The translations under genes and the position numbers were made by a program. A model generated the notes under the pieces. It was not told the origin of the DNA. It did not search any database and saw nothing but the letters and a program-made list of their open reading frames with translations. Below, piece by piece: positions 2,059 through 16,562 of a stretch of 64,000 nucleotides of DNA. Position 1 is the first letter of the stretch; each line of letters starts with the position of its first letter. The DNA is from Nitrosopumilaceae archaeon (lineage in GTDB: Archaea; Thermoproteota; Nitrososphaeria; Nitrososphaerales; Nitrosopumilaceae): the NCBI GenBank assembly GCA_050117375.1, contig JASFMV010000001.1, positions 421 through 64,420 on the forward strand, written 5' to 3'.

Positions 2059-2074
2059 GTAAGGAAGGTAACAC

Positions 2075-2377: not shown

Positions 2378-2379
2378 TA

Positions 2380-2664
2380 ATGGGTGTAATAACAGAAAAA
2401 GAATTGTCTGTAAAAGAAGAAATAAAAAAGAGACCTATGTCTTTGGAAAATTATTTTAAAGACAAGGATTTTTGTTTAGAGCAAATGAGGGAGGCGAGAG
2501 AGTTATTTGGAAATAGAAAAACAACTCCCGAACAATATCAAGCAATATATAGGGTAATTGGATTTGTGTTGCTTTATGGTCCTGAAGAAATTAGATATAT
2601 GGCGCAGGCACTAATTGACGAAGTAGCGAGGAGAGAAATATTTTTTATTACAAATGTTTGGTAA
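2380..2664 (+). CDS. hypothetical protein
   Basis: ATG 2380 lies behind GGAGG. Confidence 0.55.
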   Translation: MGVITEKELSVKEEIKKRPMSLENYFKDKDFCLEQMREARELFGNRKTTPEQYQAIYRVIGFVLLYGPEEIRYMAQALIDEVARREIFFITNVW

Positions 2665-2682
2665 GTAAAAAGGAGAAATAAA

Positions 2683-3093
2683 ATGGACGAAAAAGAGTTT
2701 ATAGAAAATATTAAAAATTTAGACAGGACAGAAAAACAATTTGTTGAAATTGTTAATAACTTGTTTCAAGACAAGGGATTAGAAAGCAGACTAATTATAA
2801 AAGATAATTCTGATCCTGAAGTTGACTTGGCTTTCAGTTTACACGGCCCGACAAGCGAAGAACAACAGGCTGCTGAAATTGTGAGCACTGCAATGAAGAC
2901 ATACACCATAAATGGATGTAAAAATGTTATTCATGGGAATATTGGACAAAACCATGAATTACGTGATTTAGAAATTGTAGAAAAACAAATAAAAATGATG
3001 TTGCACTTGCATGAGAAAACAGCACAGCAACTAGGACTAACACCGGAAGAATACGAAAACCGGATGGACAAATTATTTGAAAGCCTACATTAA
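2683..3093 (+). CDS. hypothetical protein
   Basis: 136-aa ORF behind the AAAGGAGAAATAAAATG RBS. Confidence 0.6.
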   Translation: MDEKEFIENIKNLDRTEKQFVEIVNNLFQDKGLESRLIIKDNSDPEVDLAFSLHGPTSEEQQAAEIVSTAMKTYTINGCKNVIHGNIGQNHELRDLEIVEKQIKMMLHLHEKTAQQLGLTPEEYENRMDKLFESLH

Positions 3094-3106
3094 AGGAAGT
3101 ATTTTT

Positions 3107-3229
3107 ATGAAATGTTTTACTTTGATTTATTTTACAAAGCAATTTGATAAATTTGAGTATGTAGAAAAAGAAATACCAAGTACATATGATAAAAAGATTG
3201 TTTTAAAAGAAAATGAAAAAAAAATGTAA
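3107..3229 (+). CDS. small hypothetical protein (40 aa)
   Basis: ATG behind AAAGGAAG. It is below the ORF-track length cutoff. Confidence 0.25.
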   Translation: MKCFTLIYFTKQFDKFEYVEKEIPSTYDKKIVLKENEKKM

Positions 3230-3323
3230 ACAGTCAATGTCATAAAATGGTAAGTAAAGGATTTTTATTTTCAAGATTTGTTAATAATACATGGGAATTT
3301 AAAAAAAGAAGAGGTGAAAATAA

Positions 3324-3524
3324 ATGAATAAAAATAAACCAGTATTTACTGAAGTTTGCTATGGAACAATTACGCCTGATATGACATTACGTGATTATTT
3401 TGCTGCAAAAGCAATGCAAGGAATGAAAGCATCAGAAACAGAAATGGTTGGTTATAGCGTTGAAAATCTTGTTAAAAATGCTTATATCATTGCTGATCAA
3501 ATGTTGTTGCAAAGGAAAAAATAA
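3324..3524 (+). CDS. hypothetical protein
   Basis: 66-aa ORF behind GAGGTG. Confidence 0.5.
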   Translation: MNKNKPVFTEVCYGTITPDMTLRDYFAAKAMQGMKASETEMVGYSVENLVKNAYIIADQMLLQRKK

Positions 3525-3534
3525 AAAAAAATAC

Positions 3535-3563
3535 TTTACTAAAATGTCTTTTAATAGTATTTT
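3535..3563 (+). promoter_or_regulatory. sigma70-like promoter, class A (TTTACT-N17-TATTTT)
   Basis: Same AAAAA(G)TACTTTACT core as the promoters at 16332, 19789, 41596, 45458, 45890 and 39215(-). Confidence 0.45.
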
Positions 3564-3581
3564 AACTATAAAGAGGCAAAA

Positions 3582-4334
3582 ATGAACAACATAACTGATT
3601 ATACGTATGCTGAAATAAACTATGATATTTGTTTTATTAAAAAAATAACTCCTTACCTTGATGATATAAAAGACAAAAACGGAAGACCGTTAAGAAACAA
3701 AGCCCGTGCCTATGCCTGGTATTATGTTTTTAATAATAATATTAAGGCAGATGCTTATAGACGGGCCTACCATAGTAGATATAATCCTGAAACCGGAAAA
3801 TTAGAAGAAATAATTAGAGGTGATTTGACAAAAAAAGAAGCGAAGGCCAGAAATGTTCGTATTTCAGTTAAGGCAAATGAGCTGCATTCTTACCCTTATA
3901 TCCAGCAATGTGTAGAACTTATTGAAAAAGACCACATAAAAAAAATAAAAAAAACCTTACCGCAAAGTATGTTAGAACAATTAGTTATACATGCCACCTA
4001 CGATCCATCTATGTTTTTTACTCCGCGTGGAAGAGTGGCCTTTAAAACCTGGGAAGAAATACCGGAAAAATACCGGTGTTGTGTTGAAGGAATAGAAACA
4101 AGGGCATATGGAAAAGATGGAAATGTAAGAATATCTACAATAAAATTAGTTGATAGGGACAAGGCCCGGAAATATTTACTACAAATTTGCCCCGGCCTGT
4201 TAGAAGCTGAAAAACATGAAATAATACATAAGACAATAGATGAAAACGGAGCAGTTGTTGGAATGGACGTAAAAAAACTTACGGATGCAGAGTTAATTCA
4301 AAAATATCAGGAACTGAAGAACAGGGAGAAATAA
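3582..4334 (+). CDS. terS: terminase small subunit (putative)
   Basis: The N-terminal ARAYAWYY..NIKADAYRRAY segment and the C-terminal DRDKARKYLLQI segment resemble Terminase_2-type small subunits. Position is upstream of the packaging genes. Confidence 0.5.
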   Translation: MNNITDYTYAEINYDICFIKKITPYLDDIKDKNGRPLRNKARAYAWYYVFNNNIKADAYRRAYHSRYNPETGKLEEIIRGDLTKKEAKARNVRISVKANELHSYPYIQQCVELIEKDHIKKIKKTLPQSMLEQLVIHATYDPSMFFTPRGRVAFKTWEEIPEKYRCCVEGIETRAYGKDGNVRISTIKLVDRDKARKYLLQICPGLLEAEKHEIIHKTIDENGAVVGMDVKKLTDAELIQKYQELKNREK

Positions 4335-4336
4335 AC

Positions 4337-4672
4337 ATGGAAACAGGCAGCATTGTGGCGTTGATTACATCCGGCTTTACTATGCTGGGCGGGATATTAA
4401 CAATAATGAAGGTGTTTAGCATGATACATAAAAAAGCAAAAGAGGAAGGACGCAAAGAAGAACAGTTTTGTGAAATTATTAAAGACGTGAACGGTTATGG
4501 TAAGAGATTATTAGAAGCTGAAAAAGATAATATGATAACAAAGAATAAAATAAATAAGCTTGAAAATGAAATATCTGCTAAGCTTGATGTTATCATTATT
4601 AAAACAGAGAGTACAGAAAAGAGAATGGACAGAATAGAAAATCATATATTTAATCAGGGAGAGAGAAAATGA
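4337..4672 (+). CDS. membrane-anchored coiled-coil protein
   Basis: Hydrophobic N-terminal segment (IVALITSGFTMLGGILTIMKVF) followed by a charged helical region. Confidence 0.55.
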   Translation: METGSIVALITSGFTMLGGILTIMKVFSMIHKKAKEEGRKEEQFCEIIKDVNGYGKRLLEAEKDNMITKNKINKLENEISAKLDVIIIKTESTEKRMDRIENHIFNQGERK

Positions 4673-4921
4673 ACGCATTGCAAAATTTAAAAAAAAAGAA
4701 TAATCCGGGACGACAAAGGAAATTTTAAAGGGTACAAGGGAAATCCATTGTTTCATCCAAATCCCAATATTAAAGGTTTTTCCAGTACAGAAAAAAGGCT
4801 GAAGGGGATTTGCACCAGGTAAATAAAAAGCAAAGCAAAGAGAGACGTGGAAAACTGGTAAAGAAAATATAAAACCCACTATCAAAAAGCGGGAAAATTA
4901 AAATATAAGTGGAGGAACCAA

Positions 4922-5215
4922 ATGAAAATAATTTCAGGTTTACAGTATTTAGTTACAAAAGTAGTATCAGTATTTAAAATAATAAAAAGGCTTTATAATA
5001 AAGATAAATTAAATTTATCTAAAACAATAACAATCCCTTTTACAAACAGAAATGTTACAGTTGTATTTGGCTGGTTGGTCCGGGACAAATGGGCCTTGTT
5101 TTCTGTATCTATGTTCCAGGTAGAATGGGATTGTTGTTTATCTGTTTTTGAATTAAAAGTTTTAAAATTCAGAATACATATAATCACTTATAAAAGAAAA
5201 GGAACATCAAAATGA
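4922..5215 (+). CDS. hypothetical protein
   Basis: ORF behind the strong RBS GTGGAGGAACCAAATG, which recurs at 22985 and 29710. Confidence 0.5.
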   Translation: MKIISGLQYLVTKVVSVFKIIKRLYNKDKLNLSKTITIPFTNRNVTVVFGWLVRDKWALFSVSMFQVEWDCCLSVFELKVLKFRIHIITYKRKGTSK

Positions 5216-5448
5216 AAATAGGCAAAAGACTGGGAAAACATTCTTTTTATTTATTGTTTTCCTTGATTATTGTCTTTGTTGTTACGGAGCTAATAAAGCC
5301 TTTTGTACTGTTTGGAATGTCTATAGAAAGCTGGCAATTGGTCCTGGGAACAACACTGGCCCTACACGGAAGTGTCTGGGGATGTGTGGCAACAAAGAAT
5401 TTTCGTAAACAGATTAACAAAGACAGTACATTACCTGGAGGAAATTAA
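5212..5448 (+). CDS. small two-TM membrane protein (holin candidate)
   Basis: Two hydrophobic stretches and a charged C-terminus. It lies just upstream of the cell-wall hydrolase gene. Confidence 0.4.
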   Translation: MKIGKRLGKHSFYLLFSLIIVFVVTELIKPFVLFGMSIESWQLVLGTTLALHGSVWGCVATKNFRKQINKDSTLPGGN

Positions 5449-5449
5449 A

Positions 5450-5590
5450 ATGATTTTAGAATATCCTATATCACAAAAATTTAATACTGACCCGGATATC
5501 GAAGAACAAGAAAAAAAGGATTCTATGAATAACAAAATAGATAAAACAAAAAAAGAAGATCAATATGAAAGAGGAGTGCGGAATGGATAA
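5450..5590 (+). CDS. small acidic/basic protein (46 aa)
   Basis: ATG 5450 behind GGAGGAAATTAAA. The upstream part of ORF 5372..5590 overlaps the previous gene. Confidence 0.35.
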   Translation: MILEYPISQKFNTDPDIEEQEKKDSMNNKIDKTKKEDQYERGVRNG

Positions 5591-5825
5591 AGTATTAGTA
5601 GCTATTCGGGTTAAAGGACATTGTATTATTCAGGGAAGTGATAAAAAAGTAACTGACTGGGAAATTTTGGGAATATACGGTATAGAGAACAGGGGAAAGG
5701 CTATACAACGTTGTAACCGGATTGGGGATATATTAGTTAGTCTCCCCTTTAATACAGATTTTCCTGATGAAGTGCAATATTTCGGAAAAGATGAAATTGT
5801 GTTTCAAAATACACAATATGCATAA
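5583..5825 (+). CDS. hypothetical protein
   Basis: ATG 5583 behind GAGGAG. Confidence 0.5.
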   Translation: MDKVLVAIRVKGHCIIQGSDKKVTDWEILGIYGIENRGKAIQRCNRIGDILVSLPFNTDFPDEVQYFGKDEIVFQNTQYA

Positions 5826-5837
5826 AGGAGAAAATTT

Positions 5838-6710
5838 ATGAAACAACTAACATACGGACAAAGACTTTTTGAAGATTTATTTGAATTAAATAATTTTGAT
5901 ATAAGAACAATGCAGGCACGACCAAGCGTGTTTGTTATTCGTAATTGTTGTATAGGTCAAAATGGAACAGATTTCACGTATGCAAAAGATACCGGGGACA
6001 ATATTTGTGATTCGATTATATTATATTCTCCAGTAAACGGGGAATATAATATTGTTGAAGGCCGGACTATCCCGCATAGAAAATATCAAAAAAGAATGGT
6101 AGAGGGAACAGCACGGGCAAATTATATTTCGCCTGGACTATACCCGTTTGCATTACGAAAAGGACATCATAGAGGAAAAGAGGCATTAGTCCAAAACAAG
6201 GCATATATAATTTTTCGTTCTGCCGATATGATTTTTGGTAATGAAGACGATTATGCTGATCCGGACGGATTTGTGGCTGATAACCTGCATGGCAATGCTC
6301 CCTATTCTGCCGGGTGTATTACTATTGCCGGCGATATGATAATAAATGAAAAAACAGGTGAAGAAATAAGAACAGGAGACTGGGCAGAAACGCATGACTG
6401 GATTTATAACATAAATAAATCACAAACATTTTTTAATACGGGAATATTTAATTATTCTGATATAAGTTCCCGAAACAGGAACAATTGGAAATTGATGCCC
6501 GGTAGCTACGGAGAAAGGGTAGCAATGTTGCAATCCGGCCTGAGGATTAAACCGGATGGGGACTTTGGTCCAGTGACGTTTTTTGCATTAAGAAAAAAAC
6601 AAGAGGAACTGGGCTTATTTTCTAATGGTATTTTTGATATACGGACAAGGAATATCTGGGACCAGATGCAGATATTAGACGTTGCAAAAAATCCTACAGA
6701 GGAAATTTAA
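5838..6710 (+). CDS. cell-wall hydrolase / endolysin candidate with C-terminal peptidoglycan-binding domain
   Basis: The C-terminus GERVAMLQSGLRIKPDGDFGPVTFFALRKKQ looks like PG_binding_1. The central LHGNAPYSAGCITI resembles the YkuD-type H...SxGC catalytic motif. Confidence 0.55.
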   Translation: MKQLTYGQRLFEDLFELNNFDIRTMQARPSVFVIRNCCIGQNGTDFTYAKDTGDNICDSIILYSPVNGEYNIVEGRTIPHRKYQKRMVEGTARANYISPGLYPFALRKGHHRGKEALVQNKAYIIFRSADMIFGNEDDYADPDGFVADNLHGNAPYSAGCITIAGDMIINEKTGEEIRTGDWAETHDWIYNINKSQTFFNTGIFNYSDISSRNRNNWKLMPGSYGERVAMLQSGLRIKPDGDFGPVTFFALRKKQEELGLFSNGIFDIRTRNIWDQMQILDVAKNPTEEI

Positions 6711-6721: not shown

Positions 6722-7054
6722 ATGAAAAAAATATTTTTAATACTTTTAATTTTTTTGTATGGTACTATATTATTTGTCGGGTGTGCGTCTATGAAAAAGC
6801 CGGATATTGACAAAGATTATACCGGTTTTACGGTTACAGAAAAAAAGATGCAGTATGAATATGATATGTGCTGTTATGCGCAACAATTTAGCAAAATAGA
6901 TTTGAAGTGCGACAACATAAAAGACAGGAACCAAAAAGTAAATATGATCCTGTTATATAACACATTAAAGAATACGGATGCCCTCCCGATTATTTATAGA
7001 AAAACCGGTGAAGAAATAATGACGTTTGACGATTTTAATAAATATATACAATAA
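6722..7054 (+). CDS. lipoprotein (spanin or exclusion candidate)
   Basis: Signal peptide ending in the lipobox LFVGC. Confidence 0.55.
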   Translation: MKKIFLILLIFLYGTILFVGCASMKKPDIDKDYTGFTVTEKKMQYEYDMCCYAQQFSKIDLKCDNIKDRNQKVNMILLYNTLKNTDALPIIYRKTGEEIMTFDDFNKYIQ

Positions 7055-7063
7055 GGGGACAAA

Positions 7064-7585
7064 ATGATTAAATATAAAAACATACAATTAAAATCAGTTT
7101 ATGATTTAACACATTATTTAAAAAATATGTCGATAAAAGATAAATCATATTTATTTATTCGGGAGAATGAATATAAAATTGAAAGCACGATATGGGAAGA
7201 AATGTTTGAAATTTATCTAGAGACTATTCCGGTTGGTTTTGTGTATATCAATAAGCAAGTGGAACACCGTAAAGCTGTTATTAATGGAATATATATTATT
7301 CCTGAATATAGAACCGCACATATTGCATTAATGGCAATGTTATGTGTTTGTGTTTATATTTTTAATTTTTTAGGATATAATAAAATAGAATCATCTACAA
7401 TCGAACATAATAGTCCCAGTTATGTGTTTCAGGATTCCTATATGAAAAAGGAAGGAACACAAATACAGTCATTGTATTATCAAAGAAAGTTTTATGATCA
7501 AAGTCTCTTTGGTTTACGTTTGTTTGAGTTTGAAGAATTATTAGAAAAACATAAAATTAAATTAAGCGATGTTAGAATAATATGA
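7064..7585 (+). CDS. hypothetical protein, weak GNAT-like motif
   Basis: GIYIIPEYRTAHIALMAM resembles the GNAT motif A region. This is weak evidence. Confidence 0.3.
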   Translation: MIKYKNIQLKSVYDLTHYLKNMSIKDKSYLFIRENEYKIESTIWEEMFEIYLETIPVGFVYINKQVEHRKAVINGIYIIPEYRTAHIALMAMLCVCVYIFNFLGYNKIESSTIEHNSPSYVFQDSYMKKEGTQIQSLYYQRKFYDQSLFGLRLFEFEELLEKHKIKLSDVRII

Positions 7586-9087
7586 CAAGTGTAAATTCTA
7601 TGATTGCCGGAGATTTTGCGGCACAAATGTATAGAGAGTTAGAAATGAGACAATTAGCACGGTCTCATTTAGCTCCCTTTACGCAGTACCTGTTCCCCAT
7701 GTATCAACTAACAGGGATACATAAAGAGTATGCACAAATATTAACATTGTTTGCGCGGGGAGAAATAAAAAAATTAATTATTTCAATGCCGCCTCAGCAT
7801 GGTAAATCAGAATTGTCTACTTTGCGACTTCCGGCATTTATGTTTGGACAGAATCCAAATTTAAAAGCTGCAATTGCTAGTTATAACGCAACAAAGGCAC
7901 GGGGATTTAATACAAAGCTGCAACGGATCATTGCAGATCCATTATATTTTAATTTGTTCCCGGAAACAACTATCAGTAGTACTCCTTTTAGCCAAAAGTC
8001 TAAAACGGGAATGAAGTTTCAAAGAAAACAAGAAGAATTTGAAATAATAAATTATCAGGGTAGTTGTAAAGCGGTGGGAAGAGGGGGAGCCCTTACCGGT
8101 GACCCGGTGGATTTAATCCTTATGGATGATTTATACAAAGATTATGCGGAAGGGAATAGTCCTGTTGTTCGGGAAACGGTAATTGATTGGTATACTGCGG
8201 TTGTTCGTACAAGACTGCATAACAATAGTCAGCAATTAATTGTTTTTACCCGGTGGAACGAAGAAGATTTAATTGGATTTATAGAAAGGTCGGACGACGA
8301 AAAGGTTATTTTACTTACCGAAAAAACACAATTAAATAATATTGACATTGATGCCTGGTATAAAATTAATTTCCCTGCTCTTGCAACAAAAGAATCGGAA
8401 TTAAATGAATTTGATGGAAGAAAAGAGGGTGAACCGTTATGGCCGGAAAGACATAGCCAAAAAAAATTAATAAACGATAGAAACTTAGACGAAGAAAAAT
8501 TTGAGTCCCTACATCAAGGAGATCCGAAGCCTTCTAAAGGATTATTATATAAAGGATTTAATATTTACATAACTAAGCCGGCCTTTAAGTGGAGAAAAAA
8601 TTATACAGACGTTGCCGACACGGGAAAAGATTATTTGTGTAGTATTTGCTATGAAGTCGGAGTAGACGACATGATATATATTACTGATATTTATTATACA
8701 GACGAACCGCAGGATAAAACAGAAATTGAAACGGCCGAATTATTAGACCGGAACAAAGTTAATATTGCATATGTAGAAAGTAATGCCGGTGGCCGGGCCT
8801 TTGCAAGAAATGTAGACGGGTTTACAAAGGGCCGGCATGTGTTGGAAACATTTTATCAGGGAGACAATAAGGAAAGCCGGATTATTTCTAATTCAGCAGC
8901 TATACAAAGAAAAATTTTATTTCCCATAAACTGGACTACGCGGTGGCCAGAATTTGCAAGGGACATATTACGATTTAAAAGAAATTTTAAAGCAAATTCA
9001 CATGATGATGCACCGGACGCTTTAACAGGAGTTTATGAAAAAAGCGGGTTGGCTCCAATTGATACAAAATCATTGTGGAGAAAATAA
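7582..9087 (+). CDS. terL: terminase large subunit
   Basis: Walker A-like ISMPPQHGKSE, Walker B-like LILMDDLY and the C-terminal nuclease motif SHDDAPDALTG. Overall it has the Terminase_6 pattern. Confidence 0.85.
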   Translation: MTSVNSMIAGDFAAQMYRELEMRQLARSHLAPFTQYLFPMYQLTGIHKEYAQILTLFARGEIKKLIISMPPQHGKSELSTLRLPAFMFGQNPNLKAAIASYNATKARGFNTKLQRIIADPLYFNLFPETTISSTPFSQKSKTGMKFQRKQEEFEIINYQGSCKAVGRGGALTGDPVDLILMDDLYKDYAEGNSPVVRETVIDWYTAVVRTRLHNNSQQLIVFTRWNEEDLIGFIERSDDEKVILLTEKTQLNNIDIDAWYKINFPALATKESELNEFDGRKEGEPLWPERHSQKKLINDRNLDEEKFESLHQGDPKPSKGLLYKGFNIYITKPAFKWRKNYTDVADTGKDYLCSICYEVGVDDMIYITDIYYTDEPQDKTEIETAELLDRNKVNIAYVESNAGGRAFARNVDGFTKGRHVLETFYQGDNKESRIISNSAAIQRKILFPINWTTRWPEFARDILRFKRNFKANSHDDAPDALTGVYEKSGLAPIDTKSLWRK

Positions 9088-9089
9088 AA

Positions 9090-9272
9090 ATGGAAAATGA
9101 AAAACTATATAGAATAGAATTATATTATGCAGTATTCGGAATTGTAGTAAATGTAAAAGATAATATTATCGTAGATGCGCCCCCTATAGCGCGTTGGATG
9201 GTAGGAAAACCGTTAGCTAAAATTAAAGTTTGGGTTGATAAGAAAAACGGTACAATTACAAAGATAAAATAA
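9090..9272 (+). CDS. small hypothetical protein
   Basis: ATG 9090 follows directly after the terL stop. Confidence 0.45.
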   Translation: MENEKLYRIELYYAVFGIVVNVKDNIIVDAPPIARWMVGKPLAKIKVWVDKKNGTITKIK

Positions 9273-9283
9273 AGGAGAAAATA

Positions 9284-9931
9284 ATGAAATGTTTTTATTG
9301 TGGATCAAATTGTGATAAAAAATATTCAATAAAAGAATATGTAAAAAAAACGTTTACAAATTATGATATAGTGGCTTGTCCTGATTCTCAATATGTCTGT
9401 GATGATTGTGTTTGGGCATTTGGCAGCAATTCTGAAATACAAATGATAGATGGAGAAATTAGAAATGGAAGTCCCCGTAATTATTCCTGGTTTATAACAA
9501 AAAATAAAAAAATAGCATTTACTAAAAAGCATATTGAGGAAATAAAATATTTATTATTTCATATCAAAAAAAAACCATTCAAATTAGTTATTGCAGATTC
9601 TGGACAAAAGCATTTATTATTTAGAGCTCCATGGAACTTTGATAAAAATAATTTTATATTGCAGTTTGAGGAACAACAAATTATAGTTGATTTGAAGGAA
9701 TTGGCAAAACGAATATTTATATGTAATAGACTAAGTGCTGCTATAGGAAAAGTAGCAATATTGAATCCTGATAAAGTACAATATGCAATAGCTGTTCAAA
9801 AATACTGGAATGATTTAATTGAGTATGAGAAATGGCTCAAAATACATATGCAACCATTGTCACAGTTGGCGGTATGGTTAGCAAAAAATAAACAGGAGGC
9901 TCAAAATGAATATCAATCAGTTAACACCTGA
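9284..9931 (+). CDS. csf1: Csf1-like (Cas8-like) zinc-finger protein, type IV-B-like
   Basis: N-terminal CFYCGSNC...CPDSQYVCDDC cysteine cluster. It is the first gene of a translationally coupled operon whose order matches csf1-cas11-csf2-csf3. Confidence 0.45.
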   Translation: MKCFYCGSNCDKKYSIKEYVKKTFTNYDIVACPDSQYVCDDCVWAFGSNSEIQMIDGEIRNGSPRNYSWFITKNKKIAFTKKHIEEIKYLLFHIKKKPFKLVIADSGQKHLLFRAPWNFDKNNFILQFEEQQIIVDLKELAKRIFICNRLSAAIGKVAILNPDKVQYAIAVQKYWNDLIEYEKWLKIHMQPLSQLAVWLAKNKQEAQNEYQSVNT

Positions 9932-10346
9932 AGAGTTCCGTTTAAAAATAGCAGGGCTATTGGACCCGCTGGGACAAATGGATGATTTGGGTAAAAAATC
10001 AATGGAAGATGAGGTTATAAGATTTGTATCAATATTGCCTGAAGTGTTTGGTGATAATTTGGACCGCAAAACACTATGGGAACGAATTGGCAATGGACTT
10101 GTTTCTTCATTGGCAAAAGCCGGTGGTGATGTTGAACTTTTTGTTAATCATTGTTTGGATTATGTTAAAGCAGATAGTGGTAAAGCTGCAGCAAATGAAA
10201 ATTTACATTATTTTATTTCGACATTATCAACAAGAGATAAAGAATGGAAACAACAATTTCTACGTACAATTGAAAAAAAACATTATCTTATTATTGTTAA
10301 ATCCCGTGATACTTGGAATAAAAATAAAAAGGGAGGCACGAAATGA
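9906..10346 (+). CDS. cas11: Cas11-like small subunit (putative)
   Basis: 146-aa protein with helix-favouring composition, in the Cas11 position between the csf1-like and csf2-like genes. It has a strong RBS (CAGGAGG). The call rests mainly on position. Confidence 0.35.
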   Translation: MNINQLTPEEFRLKIAGLLDPLGQMDDLGKKSMEDEVIRFVSILPEVFGDNLDRKTLWERIGNGLVSSLAKAGGDVELFVNHCLDYVKADSGKAAANENLHYFISTLSTRDKEWKQQFLRTIEKKHYLIIVKSRDTWNKNKKGGTK

Positions 10347-11287
10347 ATAAAACAGTAAGACCAAAAGTAAAACGTAGAAAAAAAGATATAGGAACAGTTA
10401 AAGTTCATTGTGTGTCTGAGACTTTGTCCCCATTAACGCACATGATGGAGACAGCTGGAAATGAGTCAATAATCAATAGGGAAAAGGTTATCCATAATGG
10501 TATGGAAAAATGGATACCTGTTTTGTCTGGAAATTCAATTCGTCATAAATTAATTCGTGATTCCGGTATGCATTATCTTCTTAATGCATGTAGCATGAGA
10601 AAGAAAATTGACATTAAACAGGCTAATTTTTTGTTTTATGGCGGTGGATTAACTGAAAGCAGCAACTCTGAGAAAATGAAAGAAATTGCCGAAATGTATG
10701 AATTGTTTCCACTTGTGAGGCTATTAGGGGCAAGTCTTCCGTGGCAAATAGTTGCAGGAAGTCTCATTGTGTTTCGCGGGAAATTAATTTGTGAAGAAAA
10801 TAAACATTTTATTTATGAGTTATTGCCCGAAAAATTTGATATTGATTTGAATTGTCAACTGAAATCAAGTGAAGATTTTATTCACGCATATCAATATACA
10901 AGAGGCGATATTACTCGACATAAGGATGTTGTTGAGATCGTTTCTCAAGATGAATTAGCATCGGATAAAAAAACCGGTTTAATGATTTATAACGGACAAT
11001 GCATTATTACCGGATCATTATTTTATCACGGCTTTATCTTGAATAGAATATCGCGTAAAGAGGTCGGTGCCTTTTTTTTATCTTTGGAAACATGGCAGGA
11101 ATCCGGTGCGTTTCTTGGTGGCTATTCAAGAATTGGACATGGTAAATTGAAATTGAACGTCATGATCGAAGACAGCAAGGATTTTATTTCCGCCAGCGAT
11201 ATTGACGACTGCATTGACGAATACATTAATCATGTTGAGGTTAATAAAGCCAAGTGTATCGAATGGCTTGATAAAAATTTTAAGTGA
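10343..11287 (+). CDS. csf2: Csf2/Cas7-like RAMP protein (putative)
   Basis: IPVLSGNSIRHKLIRD resembles the RAMP/Cas7 motif (G/S)xS(L/I)(R/K)GxLR. The C-terminal LGGYSRIGHGKL resembles a glycine-rich RAMP loop. Size (314 aa) fits. Confidence 0.55.
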   Translation: MNKTVRPKVKRRKKDIGTVKVHCVSETLSPLTHMMETAGNESIINREKVIHNGMEKWIPVLSGNSIRHKLIRDSGMHYLLNACSMRKKIDIKQANFLFYGGGLTESSNSEKMKEIAEMYELFPLVRLLGASLPWQIVAGSLIVFRGKLICEENKHFIYELLPEKFDIDLNCQLKSSEDFIHAYQYTRGDITRHKDVVEIVSQDELASDKKTGLMIYNGQCIITGSLFYHGFILNRISRKEVGAFFLSLETWQESGAFLGGYSRIGHGKLKLNVMIEDSKDFISASDIDDCIDEYINHVEVNKAKCIEWLDKNFK

Positions 11288-11295
11288 GGTCGTTT

Positions 11296-11976
11296 ATGGC
11301 AATAGAAAATTTTAAAGTAACGGCTTATTTGGTTGCACCAGTGGTGGGGGAAATACCACCACTGGACTCATTGTTGACTTATCAGCTTGCATTTTATATG
11401 AATACATTCAAATCAAAAAAATATACAAAAGCAACACCTATAACTGAATTTGAACGTTTGCCGATACCGCTTACTGAATATGATGTTGGAGGAGATAAAG
11501 TTAACTGTTGTTCTGATCCGGTTTATATAATTGAAACAGAATGGCATGATAAATTGGCAAAAAGATTTGAAACAGATATGCTTAGCACAATCATAGATCC
11601 ACTAAAGAGAAAAACCATTAATATAGGGGGTGGGTATTTACGTTCAAGATTTCAGACGCTGCATGCTAAAATAATTAGTAGGGTGGTTTGGTTTGCTAGG
11701 GGGGACTCTGAGCAGGCATTACGATTATTGAAATATGTTAACTCGCTTGGTTATTTTAGAAAAATAGGATATGGTATTGTAAATAAATGGAATGTTGAAA
11801 TAATAAAGGAAAATTTTTCAATATCCGCGCGGTGCTCCGGGAAAAAAATATTGATGAAGACTCTGCCTGTTTGTGATGCTACTCGAAACATGGACGGTAT
11901 TCGTTATGGATTTGGTGCATACAAACCACCCTACTGGCATCCAGAAAATCAGTGTGAGGTTGTGGTTCCATGTTAA
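11296..11976 (+). CDS. csf3: Csf3/Cas5-like RAMP protein (putative)
   Basis: N-terminal APVVGEIPPLDSLL and the glycine-rich LGYFRKIGYGIV loop. ATG 11296 lies behind GAGG. Position follows the cas7-like gene. Confidence 0.45.
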   Translation: MAIENFKVTAYLVAPVVGEIPPLDSLLTYQLAFYMNTFKSKKYTKATPITEFERLPIPLTEYDVGGDKVNCCSDPVYIIETEWHDKLAKRFETDMLSTIIDPLKRKTINIGGGYLRSRFQTLHAKIISRVVWFARGDSEQALRLLKYVNSLGYFRKIGYGIVNKWNVEIIKENFSISARCSGKKILMKTLPVCDATRNMDGIRYGFGAYKPPYWHPENQCEVVVPC

Positions 11977-12515
11977 ATGGTTATTATATAATACAACAAT
12001 ACGCAAATGTGATTCAGGATTATCCATTGTTTTTTACTTTTGCTAAAAAAAATAAATTATGGAAGTATATTTATCCACACTATAGGTGGGACGTGTTGCA
12101 AATTATAGCACTTGTTTGCCTGTCTCCTGGAACTCTAAATGAAAAATATAATTTTTTACAAAGAGAACTTTATTATTTTTATAATAAAATTGTTTGTACT
12201 TTTCATTTAAAAAAGAAAAATAAATGCAAACAAAAAAGGAGTATACCAAAACATAAAAATCATTGCGATATTTGTGGAAAAGATAAATTAGAATATATGA
12301 CTAAATCATTATTTCCTGGAAAAAAAGTTTGTAATTATTGTTATATGCAGCATAAGCGCAAGTATGTGAATAAATATTATGGGCGTCTGATAAAAACATG
12401 TGAATTATGTGGAAAAGAAACAAGAACAGGATTATATACAAGTGTTTTTCCTGGAAAAAAAGTTTGTATGAGCTGCTATCAAAAAGAAATGTATAGAAGG
12501 AAAAAAAAAAAATGA
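11970..12515 (+). CDS. double zinc-ribbon protein
   Basis: Two tandem copies of C(D/E)xCGK-x12-15-FPGKKVCxxCY, with a lysine-rich C-terminus. It overlaps both neighbours. Confidence 0.6.
   Translation: MLNGYYIIQQYANVIQDYPLFFTFAKKNKLWKYIYPHYRWDVLQIIALVCLSPGTLNEKYNFLQRELYYFYNKIVCTFHLKKKNKCKQKRSIPKHKNHCDICGKDKLEYMTKSLFPGKKVCNYCYMQHKRKYVNKYYGRLIKTCELCGKETRTGLYTSVFPGKKVCMSCYQKEMYRRKKKK
12501..12512 (+). repeat. A12 homopolymer at the gene junction
   Basis: Twelve consecutive A run straight into the overlapping ATGA stop/start of 11970..12515 and 12512..12925. Confidence 0.9.
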
Positions 12516-12925
12516 GAGTGGTTTTATATAATGTTGGACGTAATTTAAATCGTGCATATCGTACTTGTTTTAGTTTTGGAATTGAAAAATTAATTTTAGT
12601 AAATTCACAGGATATAAGTATAAAATGGGAATTGAAAGGAAATCTGTTTGAAGCAAAAAATAAAGTTAAAATAATAGAAACTAACATGATGCCATTGATT
12701 GATATGCATACAATTGCACTCGAAAATTATTATAAACAATCTATATATAATATCACATGGAACAATCTTGATACTATACTGATAGGTGGAGAAACGAAAG
12801 GGCTCCCTAAATTGATTAGTTGCCAGAAAGCAACAATACCAACAATCAATAATTTTTGTTTGACAGTAGAGGCATCATTAGCAATTGCCCTGTCGGAATG
12901 GAGACGAAATGTTAATACAGTGTGA
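12512..12925 (+). CDS. minimal SPOUT (SpoU/TrmH/TrmL-like) RNA 2'-O-methyltransferase
   Basis: VVLYNVGRNLNRAYRTCFSFGIEKLILV (motif 1-like) and ILIGGETKGLP...ATIPT...CLTVEASLAIALSEW (motifs 2/3-like). Confidence 0.6.
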   Translation: MRVVLYNVGRNLNRAYRTCFSFGIEKLILVNSQDISIKWELKGNLFEAKNKVKIIETNMMPLIDMHTIALENYYKQSIYNITWNNLDTILIGGETKGLPKLISCQKATIPTINNFCLTVEASLAIALSEWRRNVNTV

Positions 12926-13622
12926 CAAGCATACACAACAGGATTTAGAAATTTGGGATAGTTATGAGGAAGCCGATTTGATTTATTATAATAATCATAA
13001 TATGGTGGAAAAAGAACAAAAAGCTATTGATACTATTATCAATTTTGATAGTGATTATGTTAGTACTTCATGGGGCAAGGACTCAACTGTTTTGGTGCAT
13101 TTGTGTTATAGGGCACAAATTAAAATACCATTGGTGTGGATTATTGTTAAAGATATTGTAAATCCTTATTGTTTTGATGTTAGAAATTATTTTTTAAAAA
13201 CTTATAATGTTAATTATTATGAGATAACCGAAAGCAGGTGGTATGATGGTAATCGCTATAGGGCCACAGGTGTTTTAGAAAATGGTTTTAAAAAAGCAGT
13301 TAAACAATTTGGAAAAAAATATATATCCGGTGTACGTGCTGAAGAGTCTGGAATAAGAAAAATGTTAACAAAAATTTATGGTGTAAAGACAGAAAAAACC
13401 TGCCGTCCGTTGGCATATTGGAAACAATCAGATATTTTTGCCTATTTGGCTCATTATCAATTGCCGGTTCATCCAAATTACGGGATGTTGGGTGGTGGGA
13501 GATATAACCGTGAACATATACGGGTTGCTTCATTGGGCATTAAAAGAGGCGATGCTTTTGATAAATTGCTATGGGAAAAAGAATACTATCAAAATGAATT
13601 AAACAAAATTGGAGGAATATAA
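12909..13622 (+). CDS. CysH-like PAPS-reductase-family PP-loop protein
   Basis: PP-loop variant YVSTSWGKDSTVLVHL, plus ISGVRAEES and PLAYWKQSDIFAYL blocks. It lacks the C-terminal Cys motifs of true PAPS reductases. ATG 12909 lies behind GGAG. Confidence 0.65.
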   Translation: MLIQCDKHTQQDLEIWDSYEEADLIYYNNHNMVEKEQKAIDTIINFDSDYVSTSWGKDSTVLVHLCYRAQIKIPLVWIIVKDIVNPYCFDVRNYFLKTYNVNYYEITESRWYDGNRYRATGVLENGFKKAVKQFGKKYISGVRAEESGIRKMLTKIYGVKTEKTCRPLAYWKQSDIFAYLAHYQLPVHPNYGMLGGGRYNREHIRVASLGIKRGDAFDKLLWEKEYYQNELNKIGGI

Positions 13623-13623
13623 A

Positions 13624-14865
13624 ATGGTAATGGAAGCACTGCGCACAGACGGCTGGTCAAATTTAATTGCCGGTATCGGTGTAAAGAAAAAAGATAAAAC
13701 AGAAAATACATATTTTGTTGAAGATTATATTTTGGAAGATGAAGACTTGTCCGCGTTGTATGATGGAGAAGGACTGGCGGCAAATATAATTGATGCTGTA
13801 CCGGATGATATGACACGGGCCGGGTGGACAATAGCAAATGACGAAAAAGAAAAAATACAAAATGAAATGAAAAGGATTAAAGCGGTATATTATTTAAACA
13901 AGGCATTAAAATATGCCCGTCTATATCGTGGGGCTATTGTTGTTATGATTACAGAGCGGGGAGAATTAGACAAGCCTATACCGGCTAATCCTGGAAATGT
14001 AAAACGCCTGCGTGTATATTCTGCAAAAAGAATAATATTAACATCAACTGATATTGTAGAAGATCCGAATTCAGAATATTTTGATGACGTTGAAATATTT
14101 CATGTTTTAACCCGTTCCGGGAAAATGCTAGATATACATAGATCGCGTTGTTTGTGGTTTGGAGGCGAACTTGTATCTGATGATTTTGAATTAGATCTTA
14201 CCTATCAATATTGGGGACTGTCTACAATGCAAAGAATATGGGCCCGGTTAAAAAATTACGGAGCAGTGGAAAGGGCTGTTGCAAATTTGCTTTTGGAGTT
14301 TAATTTGGGGATATATGAATTTTCTAATTTAGCTGAAATATTAGCTATGAATAAAGAAGAAATGATGAGTGCTGTATACACACGGTTAGAAGCTATAAAC
14401 GCATGCAAGTCTATGTTAAACGCTGTTATGATCGGTGAAGGGGAGTCTTTTACAAGGGACTCTGCGAACCTGTCCGGTTTAGCGGACATTATAGATAGAA
14501 TGATGATTAATTTAACCGGTGTTGCAAAGATCCCGGCAACTAAATTATTTCGGCGATCTCCTGCGGGAATGAATGCGACAGGCGAAAGCGATATAACTAA
14601 CTATTATGATGATGTGAGTACACAACAGACACAAAAACTTGAACCGGAACTGCAAAAATTAATTAATGTAATCGGAAAAGCTGTTTATGGCAGCAACAAA
14701 GAAAATAAATATACAATTACTTTTAATTCTTTGTGGGAGCCGACTGAAAAAGAAAAAGCCGAAACAAAAAAATTAAATGCGGAAACACATTCAACTGATA
14801 TTGCAAATCAAGTTATAGATGCGGAAGAGTCTCGTAAAATAAGGTATCCAGATTTGGAGGTATAG
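13624..14865 (+). CDS. portal protein (DUF1073-like)
   Basis: N-terminal ALRTDGWSNLIAGIGVKKKDK is typical of DUF1073 portals. Size and position fit. ATG 13624 lies behind GGAGG. Confidence 0.75.
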   Translation: MVMEALRTDGWSNLIAGIGVKKKDKTENTYFVEDYILEDEDLSALYDGEGLAANIIDAVPDDMTRAGWTIANDEKEKIQNEMKRIKAVYYLNKALKYARLYRGAIVVMITERGELDKPIPANPGNVKRLRVYSAKRIILTSTDIVEDPNSEYFDDVEIFHVLTRSGKMLDIHRSRCLWFGGELVSDDFELDLTYQYWGLSTMQRIWARLKNYGAVERAVANLLLEFNLGIYEFSNLAEILAMNKEEMMSAVYTRLEAINACKSMLNAVMIGEGESFTRDSANLSGLADIIDRMMINLTGVAKIPATKLFRRSPAGMNATGESDITNYYDDVSTQQTQKLEPELQKLINVIGKAVYGSNKENKYTITFNSLWEPTEKEKAETKKLNAETHSTDIANQVIDAEESRKIRYPDLEV

Positions 14866-14866
14866 C

Positions 14867-15088
14867 ATGTTTACTGTTTTATTTATGATTTTTCTTTTGG
14901 GAATAGGTCTATTGTGGTCTATTAGAAAATGCTTATTATTAGAAAAAGAAGTAGTTCAAATTCATAAGGCAATAAGAGAATCAATGGAAATTATGGCACA
15001 TGGGCCCGTGGATGTTTCGTCTTTAAATGCGAATACAGAATACTTGAAAGAGAAACTTAAAAAGGACAAAAATGACAGACATAAATAA
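14867..15088 (+). CDS. small membrane protein
   Basis: One N-terminal TM segment. Confidence 0.45.
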   Translation: MFTVLFMIFLLGIGLLWSIRKCLLLEKEVVQIHKAIRESMEIMAHGPVDVSSLNANTEYLKEKLKKDKNDRHK

Positions 15089-16097
15089 AAAATTATTTTT
15101 AGAATTATTAAAATTAAAAAGAAAAGAAATGGGGCCCGGAAACAGGGCAAGGTCCAAAAATCCCGTAAAAGGAATTAATTGGATTTATCCGTTTTCTGTT
15201 GAGCGCAAATATGCAAAATGGCTACAGTCTATGATGCAACAGATTATTGAACCGGCTACAGAATTTGTCCGGGCGAATGTCGGAAACTGGATAAAGGAAT
15301 ATGCAGAAATGACGGCAGACGCCTATCCCGGTGATTTAAGAGTCAATATTGAAGATATTGAAAAAACGCTAAAGCAGATATATGAAGAGAGGGGCGAAGA
15401 AGTCCGAACACTGATTGCAGATTTTGGATTTCAGGTATCCGGGCAAAATATACAACAATGGAAAAAATTTACAAAAAAAGTTTTGGGAGTGGAGTTTGTA
15501 ATAACAGAGCCCTGGGAAATTGAAATAATAAAAGCCTGGGCGGAAGATAATTTCACATTGGTAAAATCCTTATCACAGGAATATATAAAAAAAGTTAATA
15601 CAATAGTTTCTGAAGCAGTAACGACAGGCCGGACAGCTGGGTATTTAGTTAAACAGCCGACATTCAAAGAAATAGAACAAGGAGTTTTTAGAAAGCTTAA
15701 AAAATGGAATAAGAATTATGCGGAATACCGGACAAGACTTATTGCACGGGATCAAGTAGGAAAATTACAAGGACAGTTTACCCAGCGCAGGCAGGAAGAC
15801 GCCGGAATAGATTCTTATTTTTGGGTAACTGCCGGGGATGAACGAGTCCGGGGAAATCCGGCCGGCCCGTGGAAAAATGCTGTTCCGTCCCACTACATTA
15901 TGAGCGGTGTATTGTGTCGTTGGGATAATGTTACGTTGTATTCTGAAAATAACGGGAAGACGTGGAAAAAAAGAAAGGCGAAAATGCCGAAAGCACATCC
16001 GGGACAAGAAATACAGTGTCGTTGTTCCGCTATTCCAAATATGATAGATCTAGTCGAACAAGTTGATAAATTAATTGAAAATGAAAAAGCAGCATAA
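15072..16097 (+). CDS. head morphogenesis protein (Mu F / SPP1 gp7-like)
   Basis: GDERVRGNP...H...G...W...HPGQEIQCRCS is a C-terminal pattern typical of Phage_Mu_F. The gene is adjacent to the portal. Confidence 0.7.
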   Translation: MTDINKKLFLELLKLKRKEMGPGNRARSKNPVKGINWIYPFSVERKYAKWLQSMMQQIIEPATEFVRANVGNWIKEYAEMTADAYPGDLRVNIEDIEKTLKQIYEERGEEVRTLIADFGFQVSGQNIQQWKKFTKKVLGVEFVITEPWEIEIIKAWAEDNFTLVKSLSQEYIKKVNTIVSEAVTTGRTAGYLVKQPTFKEIEQGVFRKLKKWNKNYAEYRTRLIARDQVGKLQGQFTQRRQEDAGIDSYFWVTAGDERVRGNPAGPWKNAVPSHYIMSGVLCRWDNVTLYSENNGKTWKKRKAKMPKAHPGQEIQCRCSAIPNMIDLVEQVDKLIENEKAA

Positions 16098-16106
16098 GGG
16101 GAGAAA

Positions 16107-16271
16107 ATGCACGACGAAATAGTGATTTATAAAGTATTAGAAAGGGTGGAAGAATTAATCAAGGAAATTAAATATGGAAAAATTGTAATTGAATTACAAG
16201 AAAACAGTGATAAAATAGATATTGTTTCGGAAGTCCGGGAAAGATTTACAAAAAATAAAAAGCCGCATTAA
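16107..16271 (+). CDS. YezD/DUF2292-like small protein
   Basis: 54 aa. The IKYGKIVIELQENSDKIDIVSEVRERF pattern fits. RBS is GGGGAG. Confidence 0.35.
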   Translation: MHDEIVIYKVLERVEELIKEIKYGKIVIELQENSDKIDIVSEVRERFTKNKKPH

Positions 16272-16280
16272 ATAATCCCT

Positions 16281-16394
16281 CATATTATCAGTACTTATAA
16301 ACATAAAAATATATCAAACAATAAAAAGTACTTTACTTTATTTACCTTTATTGCTATTTTATGTACATAAAGTTAATAAAGGAGATTTGAAATG
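16281..16394 (+). repeat. promoter/5'UTR cassette, copy 1 (class A promoter TTTACT 16332-16337, TATTTT 16355-16360)
   Basis: About 115 nt shared with 45404-45521 and, inverted, 39150-39270: CAGTACTTA...AAAAAGTACTTTACTTTATT...ACATAAAGTTAATAAAGGAGAT...ATG. Confidence 0.7.
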
Positions 16395-16562
16395 AATAAA
16401 GTTTATGAAAAAATGATAGAAAGAATTGAAAACAATCAGGACCCAATTACAGGAGAAAAAATACAAACCGTTGGACAAATTTTCGTGAAAAACGGTAAAG
16501 CATGTGACACAACTGGAAAAGAGGTAATATTAAATGATAAAGGAACATGGATATACAAATAA
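16392..16562 (+). CDS. small hypothetical protein (56 aa)
   Basis: First ORF behind cassette copy 1, with RBS AAAGGAG. Confidence 0.45.
   Translation: MNKVYEKMIERIENNQDPITGEKIQTVGQIFVKNGKACDTTGKEVILNDKGTWIYK

Follow-up and report, generated by a model that had tools for sequence, protein, structure and literature searches.

What is the gene for a minimal SPOUT methyltransferase doing in a type IV-B CRISPR cassette carried by a phage? The question is raised by a 64-kb stretch of DNA (contig JASFMV010000001.1; the whole analysed stretch is called the window hereafter), in which a 137-aa open reading frame (ORF) for such an enzyme lies between csf3 and the cysH-like gene of the cassette, next to a gene for a zinc-ribbon protein (ZnR). 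The function of type IV-B systems is listed as unknown (JBC 2024 review), and the CysH-like gene is the sole functional clue named for them so far (PMC7038947, PMC7937560). Published descriptions mention this CysH-like protein and, occasionally, an ADP-ribosyltransferase; the accessible literature, to which most subscription journals do not belong, holds no mention of a SpoU/SPOUT enzyme or a phosphatase in IV-B. The SPOUT-bearing cassette represents an accessory-gene variant of type IV-B that had not been described before. As set out below, a functional link between the SPOUT enzyme, the CysH-like protein and the Csf proteins is strongly supported by the comparison of gene neighbourhoods.

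A minimal SPOUT methyltransferase of the SpoU/TrmH class

SpoU-class SPOUT enzymes methylate the 2′-OH of RNA. By sequence, profile and predicted fold, the product of 12512..12925 is a minimal member of the SpoU/TrmH class. It scores 31.8 bits against the Pfam profile PF00588 (SpoU_methylase; gathering score 29.7), the match extending over residues 2-126 and profile positions 3-140 of 142, and a profile built from 22 family members matches the TrmH structure 1zjr with an E value of 7.9e-5. The AlphaFold2 model based on the 22-member family alignment reaches a pLDDT of 86.5 and a pTM of 0.83. Its top 50 Foldseek matches in the PDB are all knotted SpoU-class proteins (TrmH, TrmL/YibK, RlmB, TrmJ, Tsr and AviRb; TMq ~0.75), and every characterised protein among these 50 is an RNA methyltransferase. 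The SPOUT assignment proposed in the preliminary description from the letters of the window is therefore borne out by the Pfam threshold, the TrmH profile match and the SpoU-class fold of all structural matches.

Across 22 sequences, down to 43% identity, residues N11, R17, T18, G92, E94 and I109 are invariant, and P110 is nearly so. They align with the N...R-T of motif 1, the G-N-E of motif 2 and the I-P of motif 3 in A. aeolicus TrmH. In motif 3, the family has an invariant LTVEA in place of the SLNVS, or S-L-N, of TrmH. With TrmL (YibK) and TrmH the family shares its size, the three SpoU motifs, a catalytic Arg in motif 1 and, by prediction, the fold (TMq 0.74-0.76); it differs from them in its low identity (16-20%), in LTVEA for SLN, in never occurring as a stand-alone housekeeping gene and in its frequent fusion to a phosphatase. 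The labels "TrmL" and "SpoU" attached to homologues in JGI records are family-level names only, and orthology with TrmL was rejected, the TIGR00185 equivalog giving 15.9 bits against a cut-off of 190.6. On balance, these features incline us to regard the protein as an active S-adenosylmethionine-dependent RNA 2′-O-ribose methyltransferase, as the general model presented below supposes.

The SPOUT family is confined to csf/cysH neighbourhoods

Homologues were collected by a word-indexed search of 5.8 billion protein clusters and by an exhaustive profile search of 1.84 billion representatives. The former returned 37 SPOUT homologues, nearly all of 129-142 aa, and the latter 67 representatives at E<=1e-10 (about 19 of them with an additional domain of ~100 aa) and 24 at E<=1e-30. 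Since so few representatives were found, and ordinary SpoU proteins of 240-270 aa surface in the profile search only at E>=1e-8, the family is small and discrete. Genomic contexts were retrieved by exact protein look-up, by scanning IMG/VR, JGI metagenomes and GTDB genomes for back-translated patterns, and by an independent CysH-seeded scan of IMG/VR, which used two subgroup alignments because a single one across all subgroups was too divergent. This last scan, the viral survey, yielded 94 distinct loci, 92 of them with csf genes. The ORFs of each locus were labelled by hidden Markov models iterated from the window proteins, and the labels agree with precomputed Pfam calls for Csf1, Csf3 and PAPS_reduct and, on two distant loci, with NCBIfam.

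In all 41 distinct SPOUT loci of the first set, the labelled genes directly next to SPOUT are cysH-like and/or csf genes. These neighbours mostly overlap SPOUT or lie within ~100 nt of it, and wider gaps contain fused extensions or small unlabelled genes. When the viral survey is added to the first set, 46 of 46 distinct loci adjoin cysH-like and/or csf genes. The evidence is weaker at L051, a locus at a contig end where the genes next to SPOUT are just a ParB-like one and one for a large IbrA-like homologue of PAPS reductase. The most frequent gene order is csf3-SPOUT-cysH, and cysH-SPOUT-csf3, cysH-PTP-SPOUT-csf3, csf3-PTP-cysH-SPOUT-csf1 and PTP-SPOUT-cysH-csf1 also occur (PTP being a phosphatase gene, see below). 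Such a shuffled order with constant neighbours points to selection for co-expression, and not to one frozen inherited arrangement. In addition, SPOUT divergence follows that of cysH and csf3 (Mantel rho 0.29 and 0.38, respectively; p 5e-4) about as closely as cysH follows csf3 (0.44). Among the 50,697 deposited phage records of INPHARED, tblastn found no member of the SPOUT family and only weak matches to the CysH-like protein, one of which led to the IV-B cassette of Skermania phage SPI1 (see below).

The functional link between the Csf-like complex, the SPOUT enzyme and the CysH-like protein had been proposed from the window alone, with homologues in unrelated contexts set beforehand as the finding that would speak against it. 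No such homologue turned up in the survey of 46 SPOUT loci, and the proposal has gained from it, every recovered homologue standing in a cassette of this kind despite the reshuffling of the genes.

A recurrent phosphatase partner

The relatives also carry a recurrent partner of SPOUT that is invisible from the window alone. In 19 of the 46 SPOUT loci a phosphatase adjoins SPOUT or is fused to it, and three unrelated folds are represented (PTP, HAD and metallophosphoesterase). Thirteen are PTP/DSP-type cysteine phosphatases (Y_phosphatase2/3, DSPc; CX5R, e.g., CFHGRDRTG), six are HAD-type enzymes of small size, with DLDGT, DFDGT or DFDNV as motif I, and one locus encodes a lambda-phosphatase-like metallophosphoesterase (L010:7241-8005; GDTHG...GDYVDRG...GNHD). 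Fusions exist in both orientations, as PTP-SPOUT (P0037, P0063, P0075, P0078, L042) and SPOUT-PTP (P0060, P0062, P0065, P0081, L039), and as SPOUT-HAD (L014, L040, L046) and HAD-SPOUT (P0051), and stand-alone PTP and HAD genes are also present beside SPOUT in some loci. Among the 84 SPOUT-less cassettes of the viral survey a phosphatase was found in only one (L074), and the co-occurrence of PTP and SPOUT across the 92 viral cassettes has a Fisher p of 1.2e-4. The clade of the window itself (window, L001, L008, L012 and L021) has no phosphatase. The recruitment of one activity from three unrelated folds to the same partner amounts to non-orthologous displacement, and suggests that dephosphorylation and methylation are consecutive steps on one substrate.

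The type IV-B cassette of the window

The cassette genes and their flanks were read from ORFs and from Pfam and NCBIfam/TIGR profiles. Positions 7582-14865 of the + strand form a single unbroken series of overlapping or abutting genes, in which a cassette of the order csf1-cas11-csf2-csf3-ZnR-SPOUT-cysH (cas11 as a probable assignment) is inserted between phage terminase and portal:

7582..9087, + strand: terminase large subunit, left flank of the cassette (Pfam Terminase_6N 7.5e-8 and a T7-type RNaseH-like nuclease domain)
9075-9272, + strand: 65-aa ORF, from the ORF list
9284..9931, + strand: csf1-like large subunit with an N-terminal Cys-rich motif (TIGR03114 cas8u_csf1, E 3.6e-12, under the curated cut-off)
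9906..10346, + strand: probable cas11-like small subunit, 146 aa (position between csf1 and csf2; family kept there)
10343..11287, + strand: csf2, Cas7-like backbone subunit (TIGR03115, E 7e-11; phmmer to the IV-B Csf2 structure 7JHY, E 1.3e-3)
11284..11976, + strand: csf3, Cas5-like (TIGR03116, E 6.7e-8; Pfam PF27782 Csf3 on homologues)
11970..12515, + strand: ZnR, zinc-ribbon gene, 181 aa (ORF and homologue alignment)
12512..12925, + strand: SPOUT gene, 137 aa (PF00588 over the gathering score)
12909..13622, + strand: cysH-like PP-loop gene, hallmark of IV-B (PF01507 PAPS_reduct, 6.4e-11; ATG from homologue alignment)
13609..14865, + strand: portal protein, right flank of the cassette (Pfam Phage_portal_3, 1.6e-85)

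TIGR03114, TIGR03115 and TIGR03116 are the best matches of csf1, csf2 and csf3, and all three scores lie far under the curated cut-offs, which marks the cassette as a very divergent one of type IV-B-like kind; on the csf1 homologues of related loci, Pfam PF27781 (Csf1) is present. The 146-aa ORF at 9906..10346 matches nothing in the public profile libraries searched, and is probably a cas11-like small subunit, judged by its position and by the conserved family that occupies it in 11 loci of the first set and in further cassettes of the viral survey. Across 15 divergent homologues of the CysH-like protein, the PP-loop (SxGKDS) never varies and no cysteine is conserved throughout; the closest solved structures to this protein are PAPS reductases and CysD. 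CRISPR array-like repeats are absent from the entire window, and neither cas6 nor a DinG/RecD helicase was found among the ORFs and profile matches of the cassette. A csf1-csf2-csf3 operon with a cysH-like gene that lacks a redox cysteine, and with no array, cas6 or helicase, is a type IV-B system. Compared with the described representatives (e.g., that of Mycobacterium sp. JS623, PDB 7JHY), the window agrees in its core genes and in their order, the cysH-like gene coming last, and in a location on a mobile element free of array, cas6 and helicase; it differs in the two genes added between csf3 and cysH, in its very divergent core and in its insertion within a packaging/head module.

Consecutive genes overlap at their ends. 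The csf3 stop and the ZnR start share 7 nt (ATGTTAA), the ZnR stop and the SPOUT start share 4 nt (ATGA), and the SPOUT stop overlaps the cysH-like start by 17 nt when the homologue-supported ATG at 12909 is taken (the longest ORF begins at TTG 12885). These start-to-stop overlaps indicate co-transcription of the cassette genes and, probably, a coupling of their translation. At 32%, the GC content of the cassette matches that of the phage (33%). In this AT-rich DNA, promoter-like matches from a scan of 7000-16500 for promoters and terminators exceeded shuffled controls only modestly, and within the cassette no terminator was convincing.

Prevalence of SPOUT and of other accessories

Type IV-B cassettes are frequent in phage genomes, with at least 92 distinct loci in IMG/VR. 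SPOUT is present in 8 of these 92 viral cassettes (9%), a PTP-type phosphatase in 5 and ZnR in 1. The SPOUT bearers belong to at least three divergent CysH subgroups, each of which also has SPOUT-less members. This rarity, together with the omission of both genes from the accessible descriptions of IV-B, fits the doubt raised earlier that the canonical system includes them.

Several of the surveyed loci are of interest in their own right. In Skermania phage SPI1 (L053, KR011061), Orf40-Orf44 at 3024-6657, annotated as hypothetical, constitute a canonical csf1-cas11-csf2-csf3-cysH-like cassette without SPOUT; this is a cultured actinophage and a possible experimental system. The Gloeobacter morelensis plasmid pGMOR1 (L054, 4358-8827) carries the order csf2-cas6-csf3-cysH-cupin-csf1, also without SPOUT, and cupin genes are likewise found within the cassettes of L071 and L143. 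The csf3-cysH interval is a hotspot for cargo of other kinds (L079, L084, L102, L104 and L114; the loci concerned also include L086, L089, L091, L092 and L128). The cargo includes second PAPS-reductase-like proteins of 375-427 aa accompanied by a ParB-like protein, as in an IbrA/IbrB-like pair, and a Dam-like DNA methylase.

The zinc-ribbon protein

ZnR (181 aa) is composed of an N-terminal helical bundle of ~76 aa, a basic linker, two zinc ribbons and the Lys tail RRKKKK. The ribbons are as follows:

12264..12341, + strand: zinc ribbon 1, HCDICGK...FPGKKVCNYCY, Cys99/102/121/124 (cysteines invariant across family alignments)
12399..12476, + strand: zinc ribbon 2, TCELCGK...FPGKKVCMSCY, Cys144/147/166/169 (internal duplication)

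The duplication is evident at the nucleotide level: when the gene is compared with itself at a shift of 135 nt, 64 positions out of 120 agree, while the other in-frame offsets give 37 on average and at most 48. It includes an exact 22-nt repeat at 12312 and 12447. Ribbon 2 is absent from P0039, P0040, P0041, P0042 and P0044, and a second ribbon also exists in the L001/P0043 lineage; all members have in common the N-domain (PLFFTFAKHN...YIYP...QIIAL...LQRELY), a Lys/Arg-rich linker and one ribbon. The ATG at 11970 is the real start of ZnR, because the first 42 residues are kept in homologues, and by the same comparison the deposited 139-aa gene call (P0038) is to be read as truncated at its N-terminus. 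Both this ORF and that of SPOUT lie on the + strand at the coordinates first given for them, and the motifs quoted there, the two ribbons, the Lys tail and the overlaps with neighbouring genes are all present.

The AlphaFold2 model of ZnR shows a helical bundle followed by two ribbon-plus-helix units (pLDDT 78, pTM 0.40). Foldseek against the PDB returned only generic zinc-finger matches (E>=0.19); of the two products for which a structural search had been suggested, SPOUT was placed among SpoU-class enzymes and ZnR had no PDB match at E<0.1. A diverged Cas11 or Csf1 domain was considered and rejected (hhalign probabilities 0.1% and 6%, respectively), and so was a DksA/TraR C4 zinc finger, with 13.8 bits versus 24.9 for PF01258 and 16.8 versus 96 for NF008243. 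ZnR shares with the C4 fingers or ribbons of DksA/TraR type the CxxC...CxxC spacing and weak sub-threshold matches, but its N-terminal helical domain has no detectable relatives and it has no structural match.

The family is very small: even a profile query recovered no more than 7 clusters among 5.8 billion proteins. In five distinct loci, from the lineages of the window, L001, L008, L015, L016 and L159, ZnR is always in or beside a csf/cysH cassette, although its place varies: after csf3 (window, L008, L015, L016), before csf1 (L001), or between csf2 and csf1 (L159). In L015 (2305-3671), two successive csf3-like genes (227 and 225 aa) lie upstream of ZnR. Another member, P0042, belongs to a contig of 4,401 bp, the length also recorded for the contig of SPOUT P0023. 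ZnR occurs without SPOUT in L016 and L159 and is missing from most SPOUT loci, so the two genes do not behave as the pair that their adjacency in the window had suggested. From this distribution, ZnR is to be viewed as a second, independent and lineage-restricted IV-B accessory; its charge and zinc ribbons make a nucleic-acid-binding or adaptor subunit the most plausible role.

CRISPR arrays in SPOUT-bearing relatives

By definition, IV-B lacks an array and Cas6, whereas some SPOUT-bearing relatives possess arrays, one of them with Cas6. A Chloroflexi contig from a metagenome-assembled genome (MAG), L003, contains two arrays of 7 and 9 repeats with a period of 73 (174-659 and 4342-4957) and a Cas6 gene that immediately precedes PTP-SPOUT-cysH. 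In L032 (arrays at 572-681 and 2017-3106), csf1 is preceded by at least 15 repeats, and the array of L049 (994-1304) begins 7 nt past cysH. Arrays are thus found in 3 of 41 SPOUT loci versus 0 of 84 SPOUT-less viral cassettes (p 0.03), a comparison of small numbers and unlike sampling. The spacers of these arrays are unique and 30-46 nt long; searches for their targets gave no meaningful local matches, and two exact-core scans of IMG/VR were empty. An array in L031 was not counted as type IV, as it adjoins a TnpB/Cas12f-like gene, and the repeats of L033, L075, L086 and L138 were set aside as short-period coding repeats. The preliminary description had envisaged RNA modification rather than crRNA-guided interference (crRNA, CRISPR RNA). 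The link of the Csf genes with the two enzymes is strongly supported by the present data; setting crRNA-guided interference aside goes too far, given that three SPOUT relatives bear arrays, one of them with Cas6.

A proposed role in RNA modification

Several known reactions are relevant to the possible function of these genes. PP-loop enzymes adenylate their substrates. HAD-type (T4 Pnkp) and lambda-phosphatase-type (bacterial Pnkp) modules heal RNA 3′ ends, and Hen1 2′-O-methylates the healed end. Cas6 products terminate in a 2′,3′-cyclic phosphate, and 2′-O-methylation blocks RNA cleavage chemistry that depends on the 2′-OH.

The identities of the genes, the predicted fold, the conserved catalytic motifs, the exclusive co-location with the cassette and the fusions are the observations from which a model can be built. 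We favour, with some reserve, an interpretation in which SPOUT serves IV-B as a dedicated accessory and acts on RNA in concert with the Csf and CysH-like proteins. A minimal SPOUT enzyme without an RNA-binding extension of its own would have its RNA handed over by the Csf1-Cas11-Csf2-Csf3 filament, and would work beside the CysH-like protein as a PP-loop ATP pyrophosphatase. Given the phosphatases fused to it or adjoining it in many relatives, its most likely target would be a ribose at the end of an RNA or close to it. In phosphatase-bearing relatives, a terminal phosphate or 2′,3′-cyclic phosphate would be removed first and the freed 2′-OH would then be methylated by SPOUT; the order Cas6-PTP-SPOUT-cysH in L003 fits this sequence of events, because Cas6 leaves a 2′,3′-cyclic phosphate. 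The methylated RNA would resist 2′-OH-dependent nucleases and exonucleases, by the same logic as in HEN1 and Pnkp-Hen1. The cassette of the window, which has no phosphatase, carries instead the very basic ZnR, probably a lineage-specific subunit of the same complex that binds nucleic acid or serves as an adaptor. The modified RNA could be the one that the complex itself binds, as with HEN1, or else a target RNA, captured or complementary, as would suit a box C/D-like or anti-defence role.

It has been established that the Csf2/Cas11 filament of IV-B wraps ~55-60 nt of RNA, kinking it and flipping a base every 6 nt, and that IV-B complexes bind heterogeneous RNA (PMC7937560). A more far-reaching version of the proposal, which we consider tentative and rather doubtful, is that the Csf (Cas7) filament constitutes a CRISPR-derived effector whose output is RNA modification instead of cleavage or binding: the carried RNA would position the SPOUT 2′-O-methyltransferase, in company with a phosphatase and the PP-loop adenylating enzyme. 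The carried RNA would be crRNA in array-bearing relatives, and the enzymes would act on the end of the bound RNA or on a complementary target RNA.

Two sets of known systems offer functional analogies only. Pnkp-Hen1 and T4 Pnkp/Rnl1 likewise combine a 2′-O-methyltransferase, a phosphoesterase and an ATP-consuming nucleotidyl-transfer enzyme; here, unlike there, kinase and ligase are lacking, SPOUT is not the Rossmann-fold Hen1, the ATP enzyme is of the PP-loop kind, a Cas7 filament is added and the window has no phosphatase. In box C/D s(no)RNPs (ribonucleoproteins) and HEN1, an assembly that holds a guide or small RNA is similarly coupled to a 2′-O-methyltransferase; the proteins, however, are unrelated, and guide direction or restriction to the 3′ end would be, in the present case, a proposal only.

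SPOUT and the phosphatases of three folds are a second and a third enzyme clue to IV-B, beyond the CysH-like protein. A ribose methyltransferase accompanied by phosphatases points to chemistry on the 2′-OH and the terminal phosphates of RNA, and thereby narrows the functions that IV-B may have. If methylation were guide-directed, it would represent a new functional class of CRISPR-derived machinery and, possibly, a programmable RNA-modification tool. The effector version, if true, would provide a prokaryotic or phage analogue of box C/D RNPs or HEN1 made from Cas proteins, and would explain the role of IV-B.

Several considerations weigh against our interpretation. The LTVEA of motif 3, in place of the S-L-N of TrmH, could mean that chemistry or substrate differ from classical 2′-O-methylation. 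About 90% of phage IV-B cassettes work without SPOUT, which makes it a modulator and not a definer of the system. The cassette of the window has no phosphatase, so that the end-healing step may not be applicable there, and the proportions of phosphatase-bearing loci are rough, many loci scored as lacking one being short contigs. DndC and similar relatives of the CysH-like protein act on DNA, so that the substrate of the whole system might be something other than RNA. Finally, it is from gene neighbourhood that we infer the association with Csf, the RNA substrate, the methylated position and the biological role.

Alternative explanations

SPOUT might instead be a free-standing tRNA/rRNA 2′-O-methyltransferase of TrmL/TrmH type with which the phage modifies tRNA of the host or its own, for example to resist anticodon nucleases, and which resides in a variable slot of the cassette. 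TrmH and TrmL are indeed its best structural matches, homologues carry the source labels TrmL or SpoU, and the csf3-cysH slot hosts unrelated cargo elsewhere (Dam-like methylase, ParB/IbrA-like pairs). The window also contains a class II tRNA-like gene (18224-18317, + strand; GC 59%, 22-nt variable arm), located ~5 kb from SPOUT. Its Rfam tRNA score is 29.2 bits versus a gathering score of 29, in a focused search only, and its anticodon loop, GGATTGC, has G33 instead of U33, A34 and the anticodon ATT (tRNA-Asn(att) according to ARAGORN). This gene is real but atypical, and may be non-canonical or altered in decoding. With A34 and G33 it lacks the C/U34 that TrmL targets. Of 20 related loci scanned with ARAGORN, only 3 have tRNA genes nearby; the TrmL equivalog score is far under its cut-off; phosphatase fusions are untypical of tRNA 2′-O-methylating (Nm) enzymes; and the family never leaves csf/cysH cassettes in 46 distinct loci, despite their reshuffled order. 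We therefore judge this explanation unlikely, and tRNA, which had been singled out earlier as a possible substrate, is without support: the protein is not an orthologue of TrmL or TrmH, tRNA genes are rare around related loci, and the tRNA-like gene of the window is both atypical and distant.

Comparably unlikely, in our estimation, is an anti-defence device in which an array-less Csf filament sequesters guide or signalling RNAs of the host (e.g., crRNAs) to be inactivated by SPOUT, the CysH-like protein and, where there is one, the phosphatase, the methyl group disabling the RNA and not protecting it. The stop that 2′-O-methylation puts to 2′-OH-dependent RNA cleavage would suit such a device, as would the location of the cassettes in phages. 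Heterogeneous RNA is bound by IV-B complexes (PMC7937560), and a negative co-occurrence of IV-B with other CRISPR types and a proposal of an anti-CRISPR (Acr)-like role have been reported (PMC7038947); the authors of that paper themselves, however, judged so complex an Acr unlikely, and the three SPOUT relatives with arrays, one of them with Cas6, fit a system with guides of its own. The empty spacer-target searches are neutral either way. The enzymes could also act on DNA, as DndC does, or on a nucleotide or second-messenger small molecule, with SPOUT and the phosphatases tailoring a nucleotide and not a polymer. In favour of this, the CysH-like protein falls within the PAPS-reductase/DndC/CysD branch, the PTP-type domains have Pfam matches to families described from conflict systems centred on nucleotides (PTP-NADK, Tc-R-P and PTP-SAK), and ADP-ribosyltransferases exist at some IV-B loci. 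Against this, DNA has no 2′-OH to methylate, the characterised structures among the top 50 matches are all RNA methyltransferases, and the sole structurally characterised IV-B complex is an RNA-protein filament (PMC7937560); we hold a DNA or nucleotide substrate to be quite improbable. That the neighbourhood is coincidental, or SPOUT an inactive structural relic, is hardly credible: nothing specific speaks for it beyond the modest scores against public profiles, while the catalytic Asn and Arg in motif 1 and the motif-2 G-x-E do not vary in the 22 aligned sequences, down to 43% identity, and the context is exclusive, recurrent and accompanied by fusions.

Phage background of the window

The remainder of the window is a tailed phage with replication genes of bacterial type, namely a PolA-UDG fusion, DnaB, a Pol III clamp-loader subunit and RecA (examples at 54428-56971, 57131-58036 and 59873-60988), and it also encodes Dcm and N6/N4 methylases. 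The proteins deposited under a "Nitrosopumilaceae archaeon" MAG include an identical SPOUT and a ZnR of 99% identity, both from one 65,406-bp contig. Owing to the bacterial-type gene content, this archaeal bin label is doubtful, and the contig is probably a mis-binned bacterial phage. Scans of the cassette and of 38 window ORFs turned up no kinase, ligase or Hen1-type domain, and no RNA-repair ligase or kinase came to light in the 20 further ORFs scanned elsewhere in the window. The sole metallophosphoesterase among the scanned ORFs (62671-63576) lies downstream of an SMC/SbcC-like ATPase gene (61355-62278); it resembles SbcD and was rejected as an RNA-repair partner.

A type II hammerhead ribozyme (Rfam RF02276) lies on the - strand at 38923-38986, with 40.7 bits versus a gathering score of 37 (E 7.4e-5), and is the sole gathering-level Rfam match of the whole-window scan. 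Dense tandem repeats of short period (9-15 nt) occupy 59423-59677, within a 396-aa ORF (58568-59758) that has no Pfam match. Among close phages, the location of the cassette within the terminase-portal-MuF head module varies. The order is TerL, cassette, portal and MuF in the window (7582-16097); in relatives it is TerL, portal, cassette and MuF, or portal, cassette and MuF (L008 1815-10503, L001 5453-12781 and L012 3900-11437). In several other phages, a TerL gene is found a few kb downstream of the cassette.

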